From: Escherichia phage UFV-AREG1
Sequence record: KX009778
DNA: 64,000 nucleotides
Strand: one strand, 5' to 3'
The notes beneath the pieces are model-generated. The model ran no database searches and was not told where the DNA came from. It worked only from the letters and a program-made list of their open reading frames with translations. Shown here piece after piece: positions 1 through 35,206 of the stretch. The position numbers were made by a program, and so were the translations under genes. Every line of letters begins with the position of its first letter. The stretch's first letter is position 1.

Positions 1-994
1 CTGGCCAGAAGGATTCTCTGGAATTTTAACTCTGTCTGGTGGATTATCATCAAATGCTGAAGTAACAGCAGGAGATTTGATGGAAGCCTGGGACTTCTTT
101 GCTGACCGTGAATCTGTTGACGTTCAACTGTTTATTGCGGGTTCTTGTGCTGGTGAATCTTTAGAAACAGCATCTACTGTCCAAAAACACGTCGTTTCAA
201 TTGGTGATGCTCGTCAAGATTGCTTAGTATTGTGCTCACCACCGCGTGAAACTGTAGTTGGAATTCCTGTAACCCGTGCTGTTGATAACTTAGTCAATTG
301 GAGAACTGCAGCAGGTTCATACACTGATAATAACTTTAATATCAGTTCAACCTACGCAGCAATTGATGGTAACTACAAATATCAGTATGACAAATATAAT
401 GATGTGAATCGTTGGGTCCCATTAGCAGCTGATATTGCTGGATTGTGTGCAAGAACTGATAACGTTTCTCATACTTGGATGTCTCCAGCTGGTTATAATC
501 GTGGCCAGATTCTTAACGTTATTAAACTTGCTATTGAAACTCGCCAGGCTCAGCGCGACCGTTTATACCAAGAAGCTATCAACCCAGTAACTGGTACAGG
601 TGGTGATGGTTACGTATTGTATGGTGATAAAACAGCTACTTCTGTTCCTTCTCCATTTGATCGTATTAACGTTCGTCGTCTGTTTAATATGTTGAAAACG
701 AATATCGGACGCAGTTCAAAATATCGTTTGTTCGAATTAAACAATGCGTTTACTCGTTCTTCATTCCGTACAGAAACTGCTCAGTACTTGCAAGGAATTA
801 AAGCTCTTGGCGGAATTTATGAATATCGTGTAGTTTGCGATACAACAAATAACACTCCGTCAGTAATTGATAGAAATGAGTTTGTTGCAACATTCTACAT
901 CCAACCGGCGCGCAGTATAAATTATATTACTTTGAATTTCGTCGCAACTGCTACTGGTGCAGATTTCGATGAGTTAACTGGTCTTGCAGGTTAA
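1..994 (+). CDS. 18: Tail sheath protein gp18, C-terminal part (5' end lies outside window)
   Basis: Reading frame is open from position 2 with no start in window; translation (…CSPPRETVVGIPVTRAVDNLVNW…) matches T-even tail sheath; followed by hairpin and late promoters. Confidence 0.9.
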   Translation, partial: WPEGFSGILTLSGGLSSNAEVTAGDLMEAWDFFADRESVDVQLFIAGSCAGESLETASTVQKHVVSIGDARQDCLVLCSPPRETVVGIPVTRAVDNLVNWRTAAGSYTDNNFNISSTYAAIDGNYKYQYDKYNDVNRWVPLAADIAGLCARTDNVSHTWMSPAGYNRGQILNVIKLAIETRQAQRDRLYQEAINPVTGTGGDGYVLYGDKTATSVPSPFDRINVRRLFNMLKTNIGRSSKYRLFELNNAFTRSSFRTETAQYLQGIKALGGIYEYRVVCDTTNNTPSVIDRNEFVATFYIQPARSINYITLNFVATATGADFDELTGLAG

Positions 995-5420: not shown

Positions 5421-6986
5421 ATGACTATCAAAACTAAAGCTGAACTTTTGAACAAATGGAAGCCATTACTGGAAGGTGAAGGTTTACCGGAAATTGCTAA
5501 TAGCAAACAAGCGATTATCGCTAAAATCTTTGAAAACCAGGAAAAAGATTTCCAGACAGCTCCGGAATATAAAGACGAAAAAATTGCTCAGGCATTTGGT
5601 TCTTTCTTAACAGAAGCTGAAATCGGTGGTGACCACGGTTACAATGCTACTAACATCGCTGCAGGTCAGACTTCTGGCGCAGTAACTCAGATTGGCCCGG
5701 CTGTTATGGGTATGGTACGTCGTGCTATTCCTAACCTGATTGCTTTCGATATTTGCGGTGTTCAACCAATGAGCAGCCCAACCGGTCAGGTATTCGCACT
5801 CCGCGCGGTATATGGTAAAGATCCGATCGCTTCCGATGCTAAAGAAGCATTCCACCCAATGTATGGTCCAGACGCAATGTTCTCTGGTCAGGGTGCTGCT
5901 AAGAAATTCCCAGCTCTGGCTGCTAGCACACAAACCGTTGTAGGTGATATCTATACTCACTTCTTCCAGGAAACTGGTACTGTGTATCTGCAAGCTTCCG
6001 CTGTAGTAACAATCGATGCTGGTGCGACTGATGCTGCTAAATTAGATGCTGAAATTAAGAAACAAATGGAAGCTGGTGTACTGGTAGAAATCGCTGAAGG
6101 TATGGCTACTTCTATCGCTGAACTTCAGGAAGGTTTCAACGGTTCTACCGATAACCCATGGAATGAAATGGGCTTCCGTATCGATAAACAAGTTATCGAA
6201 GCTAAATCTCGCCAGCTGAAAGCTGCTTACTCTATCGAATTAGCACAAGACCTCCGCGCTGTTCACGGTATGGATGCTGATGCTGAACTGTCTGGTATTC
6301 TGGCTACCGAAATCATGCTGGAAATCAACCGCGAAGTTGTTGATTGGATTAACTACTCGGCTCAGGTTGGTAAATCTGGTATGACCCTGACTCCGGGTTC
6401 TAAAGCTGGTGTATTTGACTTCCAGGATCCGATTGATATTCGTGGTGCTCGCTGGGCGGGTGAATCCTTTAAAGCTCTGTTGTTCCAGATTGACAAAGAA
6501 GCAGTTGAAATTGCTCGTCAGACCGGTCGTGGTGAAGGTAACTTCATTATCGCTTCCCGTAACGTAGTTAACGTTCTGGCTTCAGTTGATACTGGCATTT
6601 CTTATGCTGCACAGGGTCTGGCTACCGGCTTTAACACTGATACTACCAAGTCAGTATTTGCGGGTGTTCTGGGTGGTAAATACCGTGTATATATCGACCA
6701 GTATGCTAAACAGGATTATTTCACTGTAGGTTATAAAGGTCCGAACGAAATGGATGCTGGTATTTACTATGCTCCATATGTAGCTCTGACTCCGCTGCGT
6801 GGTTCCGATCCGAAGAACTTCCAACCAGTAATGGGATTCAAAACTCGTTACGGTATCGGTATCAACCCATTTGCAGAATCCGCTGCTCAGGCTCCGGCTT
6901 CTCGCATCCAGAGCGGTATGCCTTCTATTCTGAATAGCCTTGGTAAAAACGCTTACTTCCGCCGTGTATATGTTAAAGGTATCTAA
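5421..6986 (+). CDS. 23: Major capsid protein gp23
   Basis: 521 aa, sequence MTIKTKAELLNKWKPLLEGEGLPEIANSKQAIIAKIFENQEKDF… matches T4 gp23. Confidence 0.97.
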   Translation: MTIKTKAELLNKWKPLLEGEGLPEIANSKQAIIAKIFENQEKDFQTAPEYKDEKIAQAFGSFLTEAEIGGDHGYNATNIAAGQTSGAVTQIGPAVMGMVRRAIPNLIAFDICGVQPMSSPTGQVFALRAVYGKDPIASDAKEAFHPMYGPDAMFSGQGAAKKFPALAASTQTVVGDIYTHFFQETGTVYLQASAVVTIDAGATDAAKLDAEIKKQMEAGVLVEIAEGMATSIAELQEGFNGSTDNPWNEMGFRIDKQVIEAKSRQLKAAYSIELAQDLRAVHGMDADAELSGILATEIMLEINREVVDWINYSAQVGKSGMTLTPGSKAGVFDFQDPIDIRGARWAGESFKALLFQIDKEAVEIARQTGRGEGNFIIASRNVVNVLASVDTGISYAAQGLATGFNTDTTKSVFAGVLGGKYRVYIDQYAKQDYFTVGYKGPNEMDAGIYYAPYVALTPLRGSDPKNFQPVMGFKTRYGIGINPFAESAAQAPASRIQSGMPSILNSLGKNAYFRRVYVKGI

Positions 6987-7001
6987 TCTTTGACGATTTA
7001 A

Positions 7002-7025
7002 GGGACCTTCGGGTCCCTTTAGTTG
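7002..7025 (+). terminator. Intrinsic terminator after gene 23 (gggacc-ttcg-ggtccc + T run)
   Basis: Perfect 6 bp GC stem, UUCG loop, followed by T-rich tract. Confidence 0.7.
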
Positions 7026-7034
7026 TTTTTATGG

Positions 7035-7042
7035 TATAAATA
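7035..7042 (+). promoter_or_regulatory. T4 late promoter TATAAATA upstream of gene 24
   Basis: Exact octamer about 28 nt upstream of ATG. Confidence 0.6.
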
Positions 7043-7069
7043 AATCATATAAACCAAAAGGAAAGCGCA

Positions 7070-29902: not shown

Positions 29903-30363
29903 AAAGAGTCTCTTAATAAGTTTAACACATCAATAAATTCAGCTTCGGTTAGTATTGTATCATCTTTTGTTAGACCACTAGCCATGCTGTGCTTCAAAAT
30001 TTTTCCTTTAGAGGCTTGTAAGGCATCACGAAACCCCTTGTTTTGGATCGCGGCTTCAAAATATGCATTTGTGTATAATTCTTTCCACGCCGGGGAGTAT
30101 CTTGAAAACGGAACTCCAAGCCAAAAGAGGGTCCCACGGTCCTGAGCTCTAGCATAAGACCTTCCAGCTTGTTGGGCGGCAAGCCCGGATAACCCAAATA
30201 TACGACGTTGTTGTTCAACATTTTTCACCTTACACCCTTGGAGGAATCCTTCAAGACCTCCAAATTGAATACCATCCATAACGAAAGGCCATTGGGCGAA
30301 ATTACTTAATGCACATGATGGCCATCTAAAATTACTTCTAATCTCTAACTCAGACATTTTCAA
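29899..30363 (-). CDS. Hypothetical protein (30.3 position)
   Basis: 154 aa ORF in tightly packed operon. Confidence 0.7.
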   Translation of the reverse strand: MKMSELEIRSNFRWPSCALSNFAQWPFVMDGIQFGGLEGFLQGCKVKNVEQQRRIFGLSGLAAQQAGRSYARAQDRGTLFWLGVPFSRYSPAWKELYTNAYFEAAIQNKGFRDALQASKGKILKHSMASGLTKDDTILTEAEFIDVLNLLRDSL

Positions 30364-30556
30364 TGCTTATAATTTCAACATCAGCCCAATGACCATAGCA
30401 AGGAAGACGAAATTCAACTGGCCAGTTAGGGTCCTTTTCTAATATAATAGACTCAACTTGTGGTTCTTCATGTTCATCAGTATATGGATTTTTATATGTT
30501 ACTTTATATGTGACCTTAATGTACTGAATTCCAAAAATCTTATTAATTATATTCAT
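30350..30556 (-). CDS. Hypothetical protein (30.4 position)
   Basis: 68 aa ORF. Confidence 0.6.
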   Translation of the reverse strand: MNIINKIFGIQYIKVTYKVTYKNPYTDEHEEPQVESIILEKDPNWPVEFRLPCYGHWADVEIISIENV

Positions 30557-30750
30557 ACTAATTCCTTTAATCCGTAGATAGGAGATAATTCATCACCCAT
30601 ACGAAGGTCTTCATTTCCATCTACCCAGGAAACAATATAAGCCTCTTTTATTTGAATACCACTCCATTTAAATGGAGGTAGAACCTTAGAAATTAATCCA
30701 GGTATACCAACTCCCTTTAATTCAACAGTTTGACCTAAAAAGAATTTCAT
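30553..30750 (-). CDS. Hypothetical protein (30.5 position)
   Basis: 65 aa ORF. Confidence 0.6.
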   Translation of the reverse strand: MKFFLGQTVELKGVGIPGLISKVLPPFKWSGIQIKEAYIVSWVDGNEDLRMGDELSPIYGLKELV

Positions 30751-31037
30751 TAGAACCTCATCTGAAAACCATGCGATTTAACATTACCACCACCAATGTC
30801 AGAAATATTAATTTCACGCGCAATTGAAGGGTCAATGTCAATTTCGCGATTGAGTTTAGTGATAGCTAAAGTATCACGCCCATTTACTGTACGGAATTCT
30901 AAAGGACAAACCACATCAACGTAATTTTTAATCGATTCACTAGTAGGCTGCAAATGAGCAGGAAGGTCTTTAGGCGCCTTTGAGAAAACAACTTCACAGA
31001 AATTTTTGCGGGTATCAAAATAAGTAGTCATAAACAT
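30750..31037 (-). CDS. Hypothetical protein (30.6 position)
   Basis: 95 aa ORF. Confidence 0.65.
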   Translation of the reverse strand: MFMTTYFDTRKNFCEVVFSKAPKDLPAHLQPTSESIKNYVDVVCPLEFRTVNGRDTLAITKLNREIDIDPSIAREINISDIGGGNVKSHGFQMRF

Positions 31038-31054
31038 AATATTTTCCTCAGTAA

Positions 31055-31068
31055 GGGGCCGAAGCCCC
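31055..31068. terminator. Hairpin ggggc-cgaa-gcccc between 30.7 and 30.6
   Basis: GC stem-loop; the T run lies on the plus side although flanking genes are minus-strand. Confidence 0.45.
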
Positions 31069-31078
31069 TCATTTTATT

Positions 31079-31444
31079 TTAAATATCAAATTCGTTAAGA
31101 ACTACATCAAAGATTGCTTCAAGATGCTCAGGTTTAGCTCTGTTACTCAGAATATGACGAATCCAAGTTTTAACTAGAAGCTTGCGATTAGCACCATTCC
31201 AGCAAGGATGAGTCCCTAAATCGCGTTGACGGAAATCATCATCTAATGCGATTTTGAAGTTGGAACCTTCCATCGTGATGGAAACTGTAATACCATTTTC
31301 AAATCGCATATAAACGTAGTTAGGAGTCATATACTGTTCAATTTCGCATACTGATCCATTTTGATGTTTCCAAAGGCAGATGGTATCAATAGAACCTGCA
31401 ATACCATTAGAAACATATTTACGTTCAAAGTTGATGTAGTTCAT
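31079..31444 (-). CDS. Hypothetical protein (30.7 position)
   Basis: 121 aa ORF. Confidence 0.7.
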   Translation of the reverse strand: MNYINFERKYVSNGIAGSIDTICLWKHQNGSVCEIEQYMTPNYVYMRFENGITVSITMEGSNFKIALDDDFRQRDLGTHPCWNGANRKLLVKTWIRHILSNRAKPEHLEAIFDVVLNEFDI

Positions 31445-31512
31445 TTTTATTCTCCGAGATGTTTAATTGCGGTACAGGTATATAATATCATATCCTGTAC
31501 CAAAGTAAACAA

Positions 31513-31845
31513 TTATTTTACTACTTTCCAATGCTTCATGTCAAGTTTACCAACTTTTTTCATCTTCTCAATTAAGCGTTCGGCACGTTGGCGAGCTGTA
31601 ACATAATGCCATTCGCCTAATTCATTTTGTTCAATTTTTCCAACGATTACTGTATTCAATTCATAAATCCAACCAGTAAAGAAATTATGAACTTGAATTG
31701 TAAAGGTGAAATCTGTTCCCATACCTTCTGTTGTTTCTACTTCAATAATATCACCTTCAACTGCCATTAAGAACCACATAGTTTCATCATATTTACCATT
31801 GAAGCATTTAGTTTTAACTGTAGCGTTCAGATTAATCGTTTTCAT
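31513..31845 (-). CDS. Hypothetical protein (30.8 position)
   Basis: 110 aa ORF with early promoter upstream. Confidence 0.7.
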   Translation of the reverse strand: MKTINLNATVKTKCFNGKYDETMWFLMAVEGDIIEVETTEGMGTDFTFTIQVHNFFTGWIYELNTVIVGKIEQNELGEWHYVTARQRAERLIEKMKKVGKLDMKHWKVVK

Positions 31846-31881
31846 TTTATTCTCCTTTGTTTGTGTAAGATAATACTATCA

Positions 31882-31910
31882 CAAAGGAACTATACTGTAA
31901 ACAACTTTAT
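31882..31910 (-). promoter_or_regulatory. T4 early-type promoter (GTTTACA-N17-TAGTAT) upstream of 30.8
   Basis: Reverse complement of the plus sequence gives GTTTACA, a 17 nt spacer and TAGTAT. Confidence 0.45.
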
Positions 31911-31932
31911 GCAATCTTTGGAAAATAAAAAA

Positions 31933-31950
31933 GGACTCCCGAAGGAGTCC
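31933..31950 (-). terminator. Intrinsic terminator after 30.9 (ggactcc-ttcg-ggagtcc + T run in minus sense)
   Basis: 7 bp GC-rich stem, tetraloop, A run on plus strand = U run in minus transcript. Confidence 0.65.
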
Positions 31951-31955
31951 TCAAC

Positions 31956-32132
31956 TTATGCTTTCTGCTTACCAAAACGAGAAGCATCATCTCGAAGAAC
32001 CGCACGTGCTCGGCGCATGATCTTCTCAACAGTTTGATTGATACGAGAGTTCGACCCACGCTTGTAGCCAGCGCGTTTAGAATCACCAACTTTCTTTTCA
32101 ACTGCTTTCTTTGCTTTAACTTGTTTTGCCAT
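31956..32132 (-). CDS. Small basic protein (30.9 position)
   Basis: 58 aa from ATG at 32132 (MAKQVKAKK…); ORF open to 32174 as an alternative start. Confidence 0.6.
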   Translation of the reverse strand: MAKQVKAKKAVEKKVGDSKRAGYKRGSNSRINQTVEKIMRRARAVLRDDASRFGKQKA

Positions 32133-32377
32133 TATAAATTCTCTTTTAAATGAAAATGCAGGACTTATTGGCATTGCCTGCGCAAGCCCTCAAGGGGAAC
32201 ATAGGTTTTTGGGTATTTAACGACCAGGATAACCATAAACCCGTCATCATTCACATTCAAGAGGTACACCATAAAACTGCCGGGGTCTTAAAACTATAAT
32301 GATTCGCAAATCATTAATCAGACAGTTCGATGGCTCCTCGATTTTAGCTCACACTAAGGCAGTGAATCTCCAATAAA

Positions 32378-32626
32378 TTACTTCAATGTTACCACAAAGT
32401 GACGAACTGCTTTTCGTGCAGCAGAAGCCAGAGGCTTAGCATACTTAAGTTCATCTTTTTCCTGAAGCTCAGCGGCTAATGCAGTTTGAGCAGGATTCAG
32501 ATGTTTGAAATAACGCAAGATTTCAAGAGCTTCGGCTTCAACATCAATAGATGCGCCATAGTTTTCGTGACCATTATTCCATGCGTTTCGTTGCAGTTCA
32601 AGAGCGTGTTGTAATTGTTTAATCAT
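32378..32626 (-). CDS. rIII: rIII lysis inhibition accessory protein
   Basis: 82 aa; sequence MIKQLQHALELQRNAWNNGH… and length match T4 rIII. Confidence 0.88.
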   Translation of the reverse strand: MIKQLQHALELQRNAWNNGHENYGASIDVEAEALEILRYFKHLNPAQTALAAELQEKDELKYAKPLASAARKAVRHFVVTLK

Positions 32627-32773
32627 TTAAAAATTCTCGTTAGAGATTAAAACCCGGTAGTCACGTTCTTCTGAATTTCATCTTCTTTCGACAGATCTCT
32701 CAGTTGTAGACTACCACATAGAATTGTTCGGTTAACTTATTATTCCGACACCCAATTCATATTATTATTTATA

Positions 32774-33109
32774 TCACTTATAAAGACACGGAATAGCTTT
32801 ATAGTGACAGGTAACAAATTTTTGTTTAATTTCCTTTGGCTGCTTAAGACCCAGAGCTACAAAAGGATGCGGAACGTTTCGAATTTGACCAACTGGAAGA
32901 GAAGTCAAATCACCAACTTCGCAGAAACCTTCAGGAACATCAGGACCAACAGAGTGAACTACACACAGTTCAGGAACTTCACCTTGGACACGTTTACCAA
33001 TAATAAGTCCTGATTCTGTAACTTCTTCATCACCGGCTTGCGCAGGTTCAGAAACTAAAATAACATATTCACCGACAGCACGAATTGGTAGCTGTTGTAC
33101 TTCAGACAT
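32774..33109 (-). CDS. 31: Co-chaperonin gp31 (GroES analogue)
   Basis: 111 aa, matches T4 gp31. Confidence 0.93.
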
Positions 33110-33165
33110 CGTTTTTCCTTTTTGTTAACAGATGAATTAATAATAACAAATAATTCTTAAAGCAT

Positions 33166-33474
33166 TTATTTACCAATAAATTGAAGCAAATGCTCAACTT
33201 TCATACCATTAACGGAAATCAATTTGTCAATAGAAAAACCTCGCCATGCACCAAGCTCAACATCAAATACTGGAATCATGTCAGTAGATTCTTTCCGAGT
33301 AGATTCAGTCAATTTACCAGTTTGCATGGTTGGCATAAAGTCTGCATCACGAGTACCTTTCATAGTACGAATAGTACCATCAGACTTTTCAAAAACTACG
33401 TTTGAAATACCCATGGACAATTTAGTTTTCAAAATTTCACGAATTGCTACTTTCTGTTCAGTTGTCAGTTTCAT
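33166..33474 (-). CDS. Hypothetical protein (31.1 position)
   Basis: 102 aa ORF. Confidence 0.7.
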   Translation of the reverse strand: MKLTTEQKVAIREILKTKLSMGISNVVFEKSDGTIRTMKGTRDADFMPTMQTGKLTESTRKESTDMIPVFDVELGAWRGFSIDKLISVNGMKVEHLLQFIGK

Positions 33475-33711
33475 TTATTTACCTATTACAGTTTTAATAT
33501 GAGTTGTTCCACGTTCTTTAAGAGTGGAAAGCAACTTTTGGCATTTTTCTAAATCAGATTTCCAACTATACGGCCTATCAATACAAACCCATTCTGACTT
33601 ATAGTACTGTTTCCATTTAGAGAAAAAATATTTCTTATACTCTACAGCAAATGAAATGTTCTCGTTAGAATAAGAACTAATTGCTGTGAGCTGTACCAAA
33701 CGAAATTTCAT
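33475..33711 (-). CDS. Hypothetical protein (31.2 position)
   Basis: 78 aa ORF. Confidence 0.65.
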   Translation of the reverse strand: MKFRLVQLTAISSYSNENISFAVEYKKYFFSKWKQYYKSEWVCIDRPYSWKSDLEKCQKLLSTLKERGTTHIKTVIGK

Positions 33712-34292
33712 TATTCACCACAGAATTCGTTGATATTTTCCCAATTTAACTTATTCAAGTTTTTCTTAGGAACATTAAACACTTCAATACCCGCATTTCG
33801 CAGAATATCATCCCAGCCAGGTTTATTTTTATCGTATGTTTCGCAATAAACCAACTTTTTAATTCCAGATTGAGCTATCGCTTTTGCACAATCTGGGCAA
33901 GGAGAAAGTGTTACATACATAGTAGCGCCTTCAATAGAAGAACCATTTCGCGCAGCAAACAAAATTGCATTTAGTTCAGCATGAATTTCATTTTTAGATG
34001 ACCATTTCGAGTGGGCGCTGCGGTGTTCTTTCGCCAAGACAAAACGATCAGTTGAACCAAATGATACACATTCAGGCTTATGGCCTTGGATGATAGTATG
34101 TTTAGGTTTATTCAGCAACCAACCTTGCTCAGCGGCATAATCACAACAGTTCACACCACCAGCAGGTGAACCGTTATATCCGGTAGAAATAATACGTCCA
34201 TTCTTTTCAATTACTGCTCCTACCTTCCAGGAGCAACATTTTGATTCTTGTGATACTAAATATGCAATTTGAAGTACTGTACTCGCTTTCAT
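33711..34292 (-). CDS. cd: dCMP deaminase
   Basis: 193 aa; zinc-binding deaminase motifs HAELNAI and SPCPDCAKAI. Confidence 0.95.
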   Translation of the reverse strand: MKASTVLQIAYLVSQESKCCSWKVGAVIEKNGRIISTGYNGSPAGGVNCCDYAAEQGWLLNKPKHTIIQGHKPECVSFGSTDRFVLAKEHRSAHSKWSSKNEIHAELNAILFAARNGSSIEGATMYVTLSPCPDCAKAIAQSGIKKLVYCETYDKNKPGWDDILRNAGIEVFNVPKKNLNKLNWENINEFCGE

Positions 34293-34627
34293 TTCATAAT
34301 CACCAGATAAGCAGATTTAGCAGTTTCAACACGATAAATTTCGTGACGAAGTTTAGTTATACTTTTAATAACAGAACTAATTATATTCTGCCCATCTTTA
34401 AAGCGGTTTTTCTTATCAATAAAAATTGCACCAGCCATCTTTTTGTGAAGCTCAACCGGGTACTTCGTCACAATAATAGCATCATACACAGAAGGATGAA
34501 TACTATTCACTAGAGTATCGTTCATTAAAGTTATTCTAATGAACTGTGCTGTTTCAGAATCAAGCGCTCTATGATCGCCAGTATCATTTTCAAGACAATT
34601 ATCAATTATATCAGTTAAATTCATCAT
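34289..34627 (-). CDS. Hypothetical protein (cd.1 position)
   Basis: 112 aa ORF. Confidence 0.7.
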   Translation of the reverse strand: MMNLTDIIDNCLENDTGDHRALDSETAQFIRITLMNDTLVNSIHPSVYDAIIVTKYPVELHKKMAGAIFIDKKNRFKDGQNIISSVIKSITKLRHEIYRVETAKSAYLVIMK

Positions 34628-34863
34628 AGTACGCCATACACCCTTTGTGCTTCAACTAATCCATCAAAATCCAGTTTAAGATGCGATATTTGGTCACCAT
34701 CACCTGGATTCACAATTACTAATACTGAACGAGGAGTTTCGGTAATAACACGAACCGATGTTTCAGGAAATCGTTCAGAAACCTTATTTACCAATTCCTG
34801 AGCAAATAGTTTAACTTTTTCTTGGAATTCTTTAACAGTAATTGGTTTTTCACTTAGCAGCAT
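34624..34863 (-). CDS. Hypothetical protein (cd.2 position)
   Basis: 79 aa ORF with T4 early-type promoter upstream. Confidence 0.65.
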   Translation of the reverse strand: MLLSEKPITVKEFQEKVKLFAQELVNKVSERFPETSVRVITETPRSVLVIVNPGDGDQISHLKLDFDGLVEAQRVYGVL

Positions 34864-34924
34864 TTTGTTTTCCTCATTTGTTTGGTAGAGCTATAATATC
34901 ACAACTCTACCGTAAAGTAAACTA

Positions 34925-35206
34925 TTAAATTGCTTTGAATTCTGCTGTCTGCGATTCAAAACGAATATCGCCTTTGATGACTAGCTCAGCATCAAGACCA
35001 AATACGACAATGATATGCGCGGAACCCGGATACAGCGTAATTGCAATAGAATCCACCTGGTCTGGAAGCAAAGTATTCAATACATGAGTCACTTGAGCAT
35101 GAATTCGAAGCTCGGCTGCGTTATCAAGCTTTTCAAACATATTATTAGCGATAATTTGACTAAACACTACTTCTACGATTTTAGAATAAGTCGGAAACAT
35201 ATTCAC
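34925..35206 (-). CDS. Hypothetical protein (cd.3 position)
   Basis: 93 aa ORF. Confidence 0.65.
   Translation of the reverse strand: MNMFPTYSKIVEVVFSQIIANNMFEKLDNAAELRIHAQVTHVLNTLLPDQVDSIAITLYPGSAHIIVVFGLDAELVIKGDIRFESQTAEFKAI

Follow-up and report, generated by a model that had tools for sequence, protein, structure and literature searches.

We examine the spacer that separates genes rIII and 30.9 in Escherichia phage UFV-AREG1 (sequence record KX009778), which occupies positions 32133..32377 (245 nucleotides, nt) of a 64,000-nt stretch of DNA, hereafter the window. Read in the minus-strand sense, this interval contains a structured RNA, the 5' domain, with a counterpart in bacteria that is encoded beside an abortive infection (Abi)-like gene. 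The window comes from a Tequatrovirus, with 99.3% identity to Shigella phage Shfl2 across 851 nt, and the genes around the interval (gene 31, rIII, 30.9, and 30.8) form a minus-strand set. The comparison with T4 that an earlier, sequence-only reading of this DNA had proposed reveals a matching 244-nt spacer (NC_000866, 130541-130784), which carries no annotation in the reference record. By blastn, the 245-nt interval is matched in 766 phage records, 644 of them near full length. Comparison of length variants resolves it into modules, which run on the minus strand in the order P0, the 91-nt 5' domain, an insertion site, and module E (E-a, E-d, and E-e). The modules and the flanking genes are as follows:

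32378..32626, minus strand: rIII, the upstream gene, in the same transcription unit (open reading frame, ORF, and annotation in related records)
32348..32366, minus strand: hairpin P0 (UUCAC..GUGAG), just 3' of the rIII stop codon (by eye, no statistics)
32255..32345, minus strand: the 5' domain, an Abi-partner-like RNA with helices P1-P4 (covariation and the covariance model R1, described below)
32261..32339, minus strand: core hairpin of P1 plus P2, with unpaired A 32335, C 32329, U 32273, and GUA 32267-32265
32339-32336 with 32264-32261, minus strand: helix P1 of the 5' domain
32334-32330 with 32272-32268, minus strand: helix P2, with an extension of GAA 32328-32326 paired to UUU 32276-32274
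32325-32321 with 32281-32277, minus strand: helix P3 of the 5' domain
32316-32309 with 32304-32297, minus strand: helix P4, with loop UGCG
32221..32246, minus strand: hairpin E-a (UGAC-G-GG .. CC-UG-GUCG), with a conserved 11-nt loop
32187..32197, minus strand: hairpin E-d (CCC-CUUGA-GGG), present in nearly all versions, including those of Mineola, EcS1, and PS49
32158..32181, minus strand: hairpin E-e (GCAGG..CCUGC), with conserved loop CAAUGCCAAUAAGU (partly by eye)
32133..32157, minus strand: A/U-rich unstructured stretch with the ribosome-binding region of 30.9 (AAGAG, 32145-32141)
31956..32132, minus strand: 30.9, the downstream gene, encoding a very basic protein of 58 amino acids (aa) (ORF; PHROG 1427, function not assigned)

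Signals for transcription lie outside the interval. A terminator scan places the sole intrinsic terminator of the unit 3' of 30.9 (31952-31931) and calls no terminator-like site within the interval on either strand; the early-type promoter for 30.8 is located beyond the 30.9 terminator. The terminator-like and promoter-like sites nearest to the interval are thus past 30.9, at 31952-31931 and 31901-31873. The early and late promoter signatures seen elsewhere had been described as missing here, and a scan of both strands for sigma70-like promoters likewise returns none. In record X54536, middle and late promoters are annotated upstream of gene 31 only. Because the interval has no internal promoter or terminator and the terminator of the unit follows 30.9, we expect it to be co-transcribed with rIII and 30.9. 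It is best explained as an intercistronic, noncoding, structured stretch of the gene 31-rIII-30.9 transcript, in minus-strand sense. Candidate signals at the locus were rejected: a plus-strand late promoter, TATAAATT at ~32134-32141, agrees at 7 of 8 positions and is not preserved in versions from Dhakavirus; inspection by eye gave no convincing MotA-box middle promoter; and P4 with its U-rich tail is not called as a terminator by the scan.

The interval has no conserved reading frame. The sequence-only reading had drawn attention to it as a GC-rich island without a convincing ORF, and the two parts of this description fared differently. At 39.6% GC, the interval lies above the window average of 36.1% (81st percentile among 245-nt windows; mean 36.1%, standard deviation 4.2), but it falls below both flanking genes (rIII 41%, 30.9 44%), which makes base composition a weak, marginal cue. 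The coding claim holds up in a sample of 41 distinct versions of the interval, 120 to 416 nt long: no candidate frame is kept across them, and their length differences are non-multiples of 3, so that insertions and deletions break the frame. Three ORFs are open in the window, namely a longer 30.9 frame starting at 32174, a 49-aa plus-strand ORF (32150-32299), and a 35-aa minus-strand ORF (32272-32165). Phages AR1 and FL08 have such small ORFs annotated, and X54536, ECML-123-2, and Sf25 have the long 30.9 frame annotated. It is nonetheless extremely improbable that any of these makes the interval protein-coding. A plus-strand ORF of at least 45 aa is retained in 13 of the 41 versions, and the ATG of the 35-aa ORF in 7, with ACG in its place in T4. 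The long 30.9 frame, which had been named as the case to set against a noncoding interval, finds no support in conservation, as it is kept in just 23 versions; those of Dhakavirus type have ACG for its ATG, plus stop codons. Furthermore, the substitution pattern tracks base-pairing, not codons.

Covariation demonstrates that the 5' domain is a structured RNA. In alignment A1, which holds 21 distinct sequences from five phage groups and was aligned independently of any structure, helices P1-P4 are paired in 97.9% of cells, with double-sided changes in 13 of 24 pairs. None of 500 shuffles of A1 attains the observed values, and controls in which partners were slid by 1-3 columns yield 26-60% paired cells and 0-3 compensatory pairs. 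RNAalifold independently predicts P1-P4 together with the GAA/UUU extension of P2, and the centroid fold of the whole interval as a single sequence includes the same four helices. The window differs from T4 by one compensatory change in P2, from A-U to G-C. Two G-U pairs, at the base of P2 and at the GAA/UUU extension, are kept in 24/24 sequences, and one further pair alternates between U-A and U-G; the two invariant G-U pairs and this alternation place the RNA sense on the minus strand. We built a covariance model, R1, from A1 and hence from phage sequences only. It finds a single copy in the 64-kb window (114 bits, E 5e-29). R1 also gives 14.8 bits on a terminator-like hairpin, GGGACCTTCGGGTCCC, at 6983-7046 (plus strand), which looks like a generic terminator.

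Both small palindromes that had been picked out from the bare sequence are real features. The aatgatt-tgcg-aatcatt palindrome is helix P4 (32316-32297) and represents more than chance, since compensatory substitutions preserve it. The ccc..ggg palindrome is hairpin E-d (32197-32187), for which covariation is uninformative because E-d barely varies.

The 5' domain is widespread in phages. Homologues, at 78-83% identity but 99% in phi92-like phages, occur in four unrelated phage settings. In the Vequintavirinae W70, A73, A5-4, and LTH01, the domain stands directly 5' of a tRNA-like gene and a tRNA-Met, and in Phapecoctavirus phiWec190 it is flanked by tRNA-Gln and tRNA-Pro. In ~32 Kuravirus records it separates a hypothetical gene from terL, immediately upstream of terL, and Nieuwekanaalvirus KBNP1711 has the minimal core only. 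The phi92-like phages hold the complete T4 interval at 99% identity. The domain is often embedded within tRNA clusters, and it is co-oriented with the neighbouring genes or tRNAs in every phage context. Minimal forms without P3 and P4 are found in phages G50, STML-198, and KBNP1711. R1 has no match in the corresponding spacers of Jiaodavirus, Kagamiyamavirus, and Karamvirus, and pattern scans of IMG/VR revealed no contexts beyond T4-like and phi92-like contigs.

Two of these contexts have additional features. In the Justusliebigvirus phi92 (locus L006, NC_023693.1, 2901-3248; also L024 and L030), the interval lies between tRNA-Gly and tRNA-Gln and is circularly permuted: a 13-nt direct repeat, TTTATTGGAGATT, is followed by the interval, the ATGG of 30.9 in frame with the last 27 rIII codons, TAA, and the repeat again. 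The permutation and the flanking direct repeats suggest the integration of a ~340-bp circle derived from the equivalent of window positions 32124-32462. In W70 (locus L016), the tRNA-like gene at 617-695 (minus strand) is odd, with 35.8 bits for the Rfam tRNA model and no ARAGORN call, and is followed by the tRNA-Met; beyond both, a stretch at ~430-520 (minus strand) resembles the T4 stable RNA rnaD (..AAGTCGTCGGACTGATG..CACAGCAGAAACGGCGCACC).

A bacterial counterpart emerged when 185,579 genomes, each representing one bacterial species, were scanned with a two-part pattern. The scan matched an Arsukibacterium chromosome (locus L061) that bears two tandem core hairpins (R1 E 3e-8 and 1.5e-7), with a promoter-like site (TTGCAA-17-TAGATT) before them and a terminator hairpin after. 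The divergent neighbouring ORF has matches to PADLOC PD-T4-5 (E 3e-30) and AbiD, and a weak one to Pfam Abi_2. On one side of this locus (L061 40-1276) are genes for a ThiF-type E1 and a JAB deubiquitinase-like protein (CBASS/Bil-type accessory), and on the other is a serine resolvase gene; the adjoining E1/JAB and resolvase genes fit a defence island on a mobile segment. Loci encoding homologues of the Arsukibacterium Abi-like protein were then fetched. The hairpin-bearing set consists of those with at least 44% identity and upstream DNA; each such locus has the hairpin 40-120 nt upstream of the start codon, on the strand opposite the gene. In addition to L061, the loci are:

L075: the contig end cuts through the hairpin
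L076, metagenome-assembled genome: hairpin divergent to the Abi-like gene
L077, Aeromonas hydrophila: hairpin divergent to the Abi-like gene
L078, Lonepinella: hairpin divergent to the Abi-like gene
L079, Escherichia coli pRHB38-C13_6 (CP055629.1), a 3.1-kb mobilizable plasmid: hairpin RNA (288-192, minus strand) divergent to the Abi-like gene (339-1091)
L085, Pasteurella-type plasmid contig: hairpin divergent, preceded by a TTAACC-16-TATAAT promoter (scanner)

In all seven loci (7/7, L061 included), which belong to Gammaproteobacteria, the hairpin adjoins a gene for a ~250-aa PD-T4-5-like HEPN protein of the Abi_2/AbiD/F type. The bacterial RNA is thereby linked to one Abi_2 subfamily, whose members share an invariant LRN motif and an RNRLFHHEPIW motif (the R-x4-H HEPN signature). 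R1 E-values for the bacterial copies range from 8e-9 to 5e-6. A -10-like hexamer is visible by eye 7-8 nt 5' of the bacterial hairpins, and terminators follow directly 3' of them (by eye and scanner). The bacterial form is a stand-alone small-RNA gene comprising one or two hairpins and a terminator, and in some loci a promoter-like site as well. Every bacterial copy is minimal and lacks P3 and P4 (two copies in L061, one each in L076, L077, L078, L079, and L085). The helices are common to the phage and bacterial forms, as are the unpaired A, C, U, and GUA and a 3' tail, CUCU(A/U)GAAUGU; variation between the two forms is confined to the three middle pairs of P2, which covaries with four to five pair types, and to the apical loop. 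The P3/P4 arm of the phage form (32325-32277) is a phage-only expansion of this variable loop. A model derived from phages detects the bacterial RNAs, and the phage and bacterial RNAs are homologous in sequence and structure, as would be expected of an antitoxin-RNA mimic.

More distant members of the protein family do not share this hairpin. Relatives of the Abi-like protein at 33-39% identity have no R1 match at their loci, and a bona fide PD-T4-5 locus (pUTAK-18-2, PADLOC E 1e-133) has no R1 hairpin. The sensitivity of T4 to PD-T4-5 does not, therefore, contradict a role of the T4 domain against the hairpin-bearing subfamily. Three loci of the 33-39% relatives (L080, L082, and L084) have a divergent upstream stretch that ends in a terminator, and that of L082 contains GUACCCCUUGAAUGUGA, resembling the 3' end of the T4 domain; these stretches may be other cognate RNAs. 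Searching the 64-kb window and the fetched phage loci with nine family members by tblastn gave chance-level matches only (E >= 0.03). The phage copy is an orphan in the sense that the phage DNA examined contains no Abi_2-like gene.

Among the identities suggested beforehand (a small RNA, a structured leader, a regulatory site, or a remnant of foreign DNA), a structured RNA is upheld by covariation, and "foreign" is partly apt, in that the domain is shared with bacterial defence loci and unrelated phages.

Several known systems provide a framework for function. PD-T4-5, distantly related to AbiF/D, came out of a selection with T4 and is a plasmid-borne, toxin-antitoxin-like abortive-infection defence (PMC9519451). 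AbiF/Abi_2 proteins are described as HEPN toxins that are neutralised, through direct binding, by an adjacent noncoding RNA with one or two abiF motif hairpins (PMC12373285; PMC13064643). According to the same accounts, the AbiF noncoding RNA works in cis as well as in trans, and Cas13 is proposed to have evolved from this family (PMC12373285; PMC13064643 citing Zilberzwige-Tal 2025). Phages are reported to evade such systems: antitoxin-RNA mimics let them escape the type III system ToxIN (PMC13064643), and AbiF is inhibited by a hairpin that lactococcal phage sk1 carries at its cos site (PMC13064643, citing Rince 2000 and Zilberzwige-Tal 2025).

One close parallel to our bacterial loci is AbiF with its hairpin noncoding RNA (RF03085; RCd22 of C. 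difficile; Prevotellaceae AbiF), a type III-like toxin-antitoxin system. Here too a short hairpin in one or two tandem copies, with its own terminator, lies beside a gene for a ~250-aa Abi_2/AbiD/F HEPN protein. Unlike the AbiF hairpins of 33-35 nt, the bacterial hairpin is ~45 nt long, and the window copy sits in a phage with no toxin gene in the window or the fetched loci. A phage-borne homologue of a host RNA antitoxin without the toxin has been reported in pseudo-ToxI of Pectobacterium phage PhiTE (Blower et al. 2012 in PMC13064643), and we infer a similar relationship here. ToxI, as presented there, consists of tandem 36-nt units processed by the toxin, whereas our element is a single hairpin with a P3/P4 arm, and it is fixed in hundreds of wild phage genomes instead of arising in escape mutants. 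Like the sk1 cos hairpin, which counters an AbiF-family system, the element is phage-borne, and in Kuravirus it adjoins the large terminase gene; unlike the sk1 hairpin, reported in that account not to resemble the AbiF RNA, the phage and host RNAs here are clearly homologous. A further parallel lies within T4 itself, where the element would also act as a phage-encoded substitute antitoxin that silences a host RNase toxin after the shut-off of host expression. The T4 protein Dmd replaces the labile antitoxins RnlB and LsoB and acts on RnlA and LsoA. Dmd is a protein with those targets, whereas the agent here would be an RNA and the target an Abi_2 HEPN protein.

Taken with this background, the reading we favour, with modest confidence, is that the phage 5' domain is an orphan copy of an antitoxin RNA and acts as an anti-defence decoy against an Abi-type toxin. 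By analogy with AbiF, the bacterial RNA would be the antitoxin, or keeper, of its Abi-like neighbour, binding the HEPN toxin and holding it inactive. Phage takeover would halt host transcription, the host RNA would decay, and the toxin would be freed. Phage promoters would supply the phage copy of the hairpin during infection. We propose that, with a hairpin made from phage promoters at hand, the toxin would stay occupied and abortive infection would not be triggered. In this manner, the phage copy would bind the toxin, to the benefit of the phage.

Several observations weigh against this proposal. The P3/P4 expansion of 57 nt that the phage form usually has is present in no bacterial copy and could signify a different function. 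The domain can be lost: P0 and the 5' domain are both deleted in phages of the UGKSEcP2 type (120-nt spacer; H92-H99), and the existence of such natural domain-deleted T4-like phages implies that the domain is dispensable on laboratory hosts. In E. coli, the bacterial RNA was seen on a single plasmid; searching 5,426 complete E. coli genomes with the 5' domain by blastn gave no match, although blastn is insensitive for a 45-nt hairpin. As to structure, the interval as a whole folds with unremarkable energy (z = -1.16), and the combined figures for alignments A1 and A3 (97.9-98% of cells paired; compensatory changes in 13-14 of 24-25 pairs) include A3, a set of 24 sequences that, unlike A1, was fitted to the model, and such fitting favours the structure. 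Finally, the likeness to AbiF has its limits. The element would work like an AbiF-type antitoxin RNA, and the antitoxin role of the bacterial form rests on that analogy. Yet in all loci the bacterial RNA and the Abi gene are encoded divergently, whereas the AbiF RNA lies upstream on the same strand, and RF03085 does not match the hairpin (none at E<=10 for the interval and L061; none at E<=1 for L079, L085, and L086). Because RF03085 is unmatched and the bacterial form is divergently encoded, we do not file the element under the Rfam abiF motif. We prefer to describe it as a new class of RNA partner for the PD-T4-5-like Abi_2 subfamily, with orphan copies in phages.

The position of the interval lends itself to another explanation, in which it is a cis-acting element of the 31-rIII-30.9 message, either a processing or stability barrier or a leader for 30.9, and its likeness to the bacterial RNA reflects ancestry without a common partner. 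It does lie between co-transcribed genes without a promoter or terminator of its own, and its last module finishes in the ribosome-binding region of 30.9. In addition, GGAG, the recognition sequence of RegB (PMC9409239), occurs at 32368-32365 and in the P1/P2 junction, and the very basic small protein encoded by 30.9 could bind RNA. Elsewhere, however, the domain precedes other things, such as terL and tRNA genes; it reached phi92 without 30.9; and bacteria encode it as a separate gene that has its own terminator. A leader for one particular gene is improbable given the varied downstream genes and the free-standing bacterial form, and we consider a cis-acting role as a whole unlikely. A trans-acting small RNA, freed from the polycistron or from tRNA precursors and directed at host or phage mRNAs or at a host protein other than Abi, is a still less probable account. 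The structure is strongly conserved, and in three phage lineages the element is embedded among stable-RNA genes; there, the processing of tRNAs would necessarily set it free. Its conservation, however, resides in helices and internal-loop bases and not in a single-stranded seed, no candidate target is at hand, and the tie to one protein family in 7/7 bacterial loci suggests that this protein is the partner.

A selfish or neutral hairpin cassette, spread by recombination, acting at the level of DNA, and either harmless or promoting its own transfer, is in our view very unlikely. In its favour, presence, module order, and insertions at one site vary among close relatives, and the permuted phi92 copy with its 13-nt direct repeats looks as if it came from a small circle of the kind known as mini-circles (PMC2839356). 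T4-type phages contain such mini-circles and also PeSL cassettes, which combine an early promoter and a stem-loop (PMC2839356, PMC4122927). Like PeSL cassettes, our element is small, intergenic, located in variable regions, and shuffled between T4-type genomes, and the phi92 copy fits a circular intermediate. Unlike them, the interval has no sigma70-like promoter or terminator and forms a multi-helix RNA with conserved internal loops. Compensatory changes in the helices also argue against action as DNA, as do the invariant G-U pairs, which would be A-C mismatches on the opposite strand; orientation always follows transcription, and no transposase or endonuclease gene lies alongside.

The modules outside the 5' domain are conserved hairpins as well, and P0, E-a, E-d, and E-e may serve RNA stabilisation or processing, or set up translation of 30.9. 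By eye, the UCAC/GUGA pairing of T4-type P0 becomes UCGC/GCGG in Mosigvirus SCS57; P0 is missing from F2, ECO111, and Dhakavirus-type versions. The insertion site between the 5' domain and module E is empty in the window and T4, holds a 43-nt hairpin in Sf25, Mosigvirus, and Dhakavirus versions, and holds a 153-155-nt element in ECML-123-2, SA21RB, and CLBP2. The 7 pairs of E-a are 100% paired, 3 of them with compensatory changes, in a comparison of Tequatro-, Mosig-, Dhaka-, Karam-, Kagamiyama-, and Vequinta-type sequences. An A-rich tail follows E-a (32220-32204), and a pseudoknot may arise if its AACC (32207-32204) pairs with the GGUU of the loop, although these pairs barely vary. E-d takes a different position relative to the other modules in Mineola, EcS1, and PS49. 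E-e is mostly invariant; an A to G change in locus L027 produces a G-U pair, and STML-198 has GAACUGG..CCAGUUC at the same site. Within the final A/U-rich stretch lies AAGAGAAUUUA, which likewise makes up the 3' end of the Vequintavirinae homologue of the cassette, and in W70, A5-4, and LTH01 the homologous stretch closes with AAGAGAATTTAG, directly followed by the tRNA-like gene. As for the gene downstream, a Pfam search with the 30.9 protein gave no match; in Sf25 (L009 159-542, minus strand), 30.9 is tandemly duplicated and fused as a 127-aa ORF with two 58-aa copies (tblastn).

In many T4-like phages, the single insertion site of the interval is occupied by a noncoding element of 135-155 nt that we call D-long (L008 619-773, minus strand; also L007, L011, and L042-L059). 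It is absent from the window, where its site would fall at ~32251. D-long also occurs in the rIII-30.9 spacers of Jiaoda-, Karam-, Kagamiyama-, and Moon-type phages; 408 records contain it, and copies from Escherichia and Klebsiella phages are 94-95% identical. Inspection by eye shows hairpins that covary, a kissing loop-loop pairing of 6 bp, and a hairpin capped by GAAA; Rfam has no match for it. In Mineola (L042) the spacer runs E-a, P0, D-long, E-d, and in EcS1 (L043) and PS49 (L044) E-d, D-long, E-a. These differences in order between genera point to a shuffled set of RNA modules. A bolder extension, which we regard as doubtful, is that the rIII-30.9 spacer of Tevenvirinae is an "anti-defence RNA island" of independent, shuffled decoys (the Abi-partner hairpin, the E-a pseudoknot, and D-long with its kissing loops and GNRA hairpin), each of which would mimic the RNA partner of a different host immune system and pass between unrelated phage families via small circles, some lineages parking them in tRNA clusters for release by tRNA processing.

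Known RNA families do not account for the interval. The covariance-model search that the sequence-only reading had called for came back empty, with nothing in 32133-32377 at E<=10 (Rfam 15), and permissive E-values brought up nothing relevant for the insertion variants or the bacterial loci. A match to Atu_C8 at 31917-32000 (minus strand; 31 bits, gathering score 50) falls outside the interval, on the stop codon and terminator of 30.9, and looks like a generic terminator hairpin. A tRNA or tRNA-like gene is rejected, as ARAGORN and the Rfam tRNA model find no cloverleaf in window positions 30000-35000 or in the T4-like loci; tRNAs neighbour the element only in W70, phiWec190, and phi92. There is no similarity to the T4 stable RNAs rnaC or rnaD. 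A hammerhead ribozyme is not supported, since the P3/P4 junction CUGAUUA has U where the core needs G, and Rfam offers no match. P0 (TTCACTGCC plus AGCTAA) agrees by eye with a type I-F CRISPR repeat at ~18 of 28 positions, but the repeat hairpin is not kept and many phages are without P0, which suggests chance. E-a has a layout like that of the preQ1-I riboswitch (stem-loop, A-rich tail, possible pseudoknot), but the Rfam preQ1 models are unmatched. We found no earlier description of the element in the literature searched, the coverage of which was incomplete.

No lytic phage has been studied more than T4, yet the T4 reference record leaves this spacer unannotated. If the favoured reading is true, an undescribed small RNA partners the PD-T4-5-like subfamily, which defence finders model as single-gene, and the presence of the domain, which varies among near-identical therapeutic T4-like phages, could alter host range in phage therapy. 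A host RNA and its phage mimic would offer a natural pair for studying the restraint and release of a HEPN Abi toxin. More broadly, T4-like phages and several other coliphage families would hold an RNA-based counter-defence against a toxin of the AbiD/F family, the proposed ancestor of Cas13.

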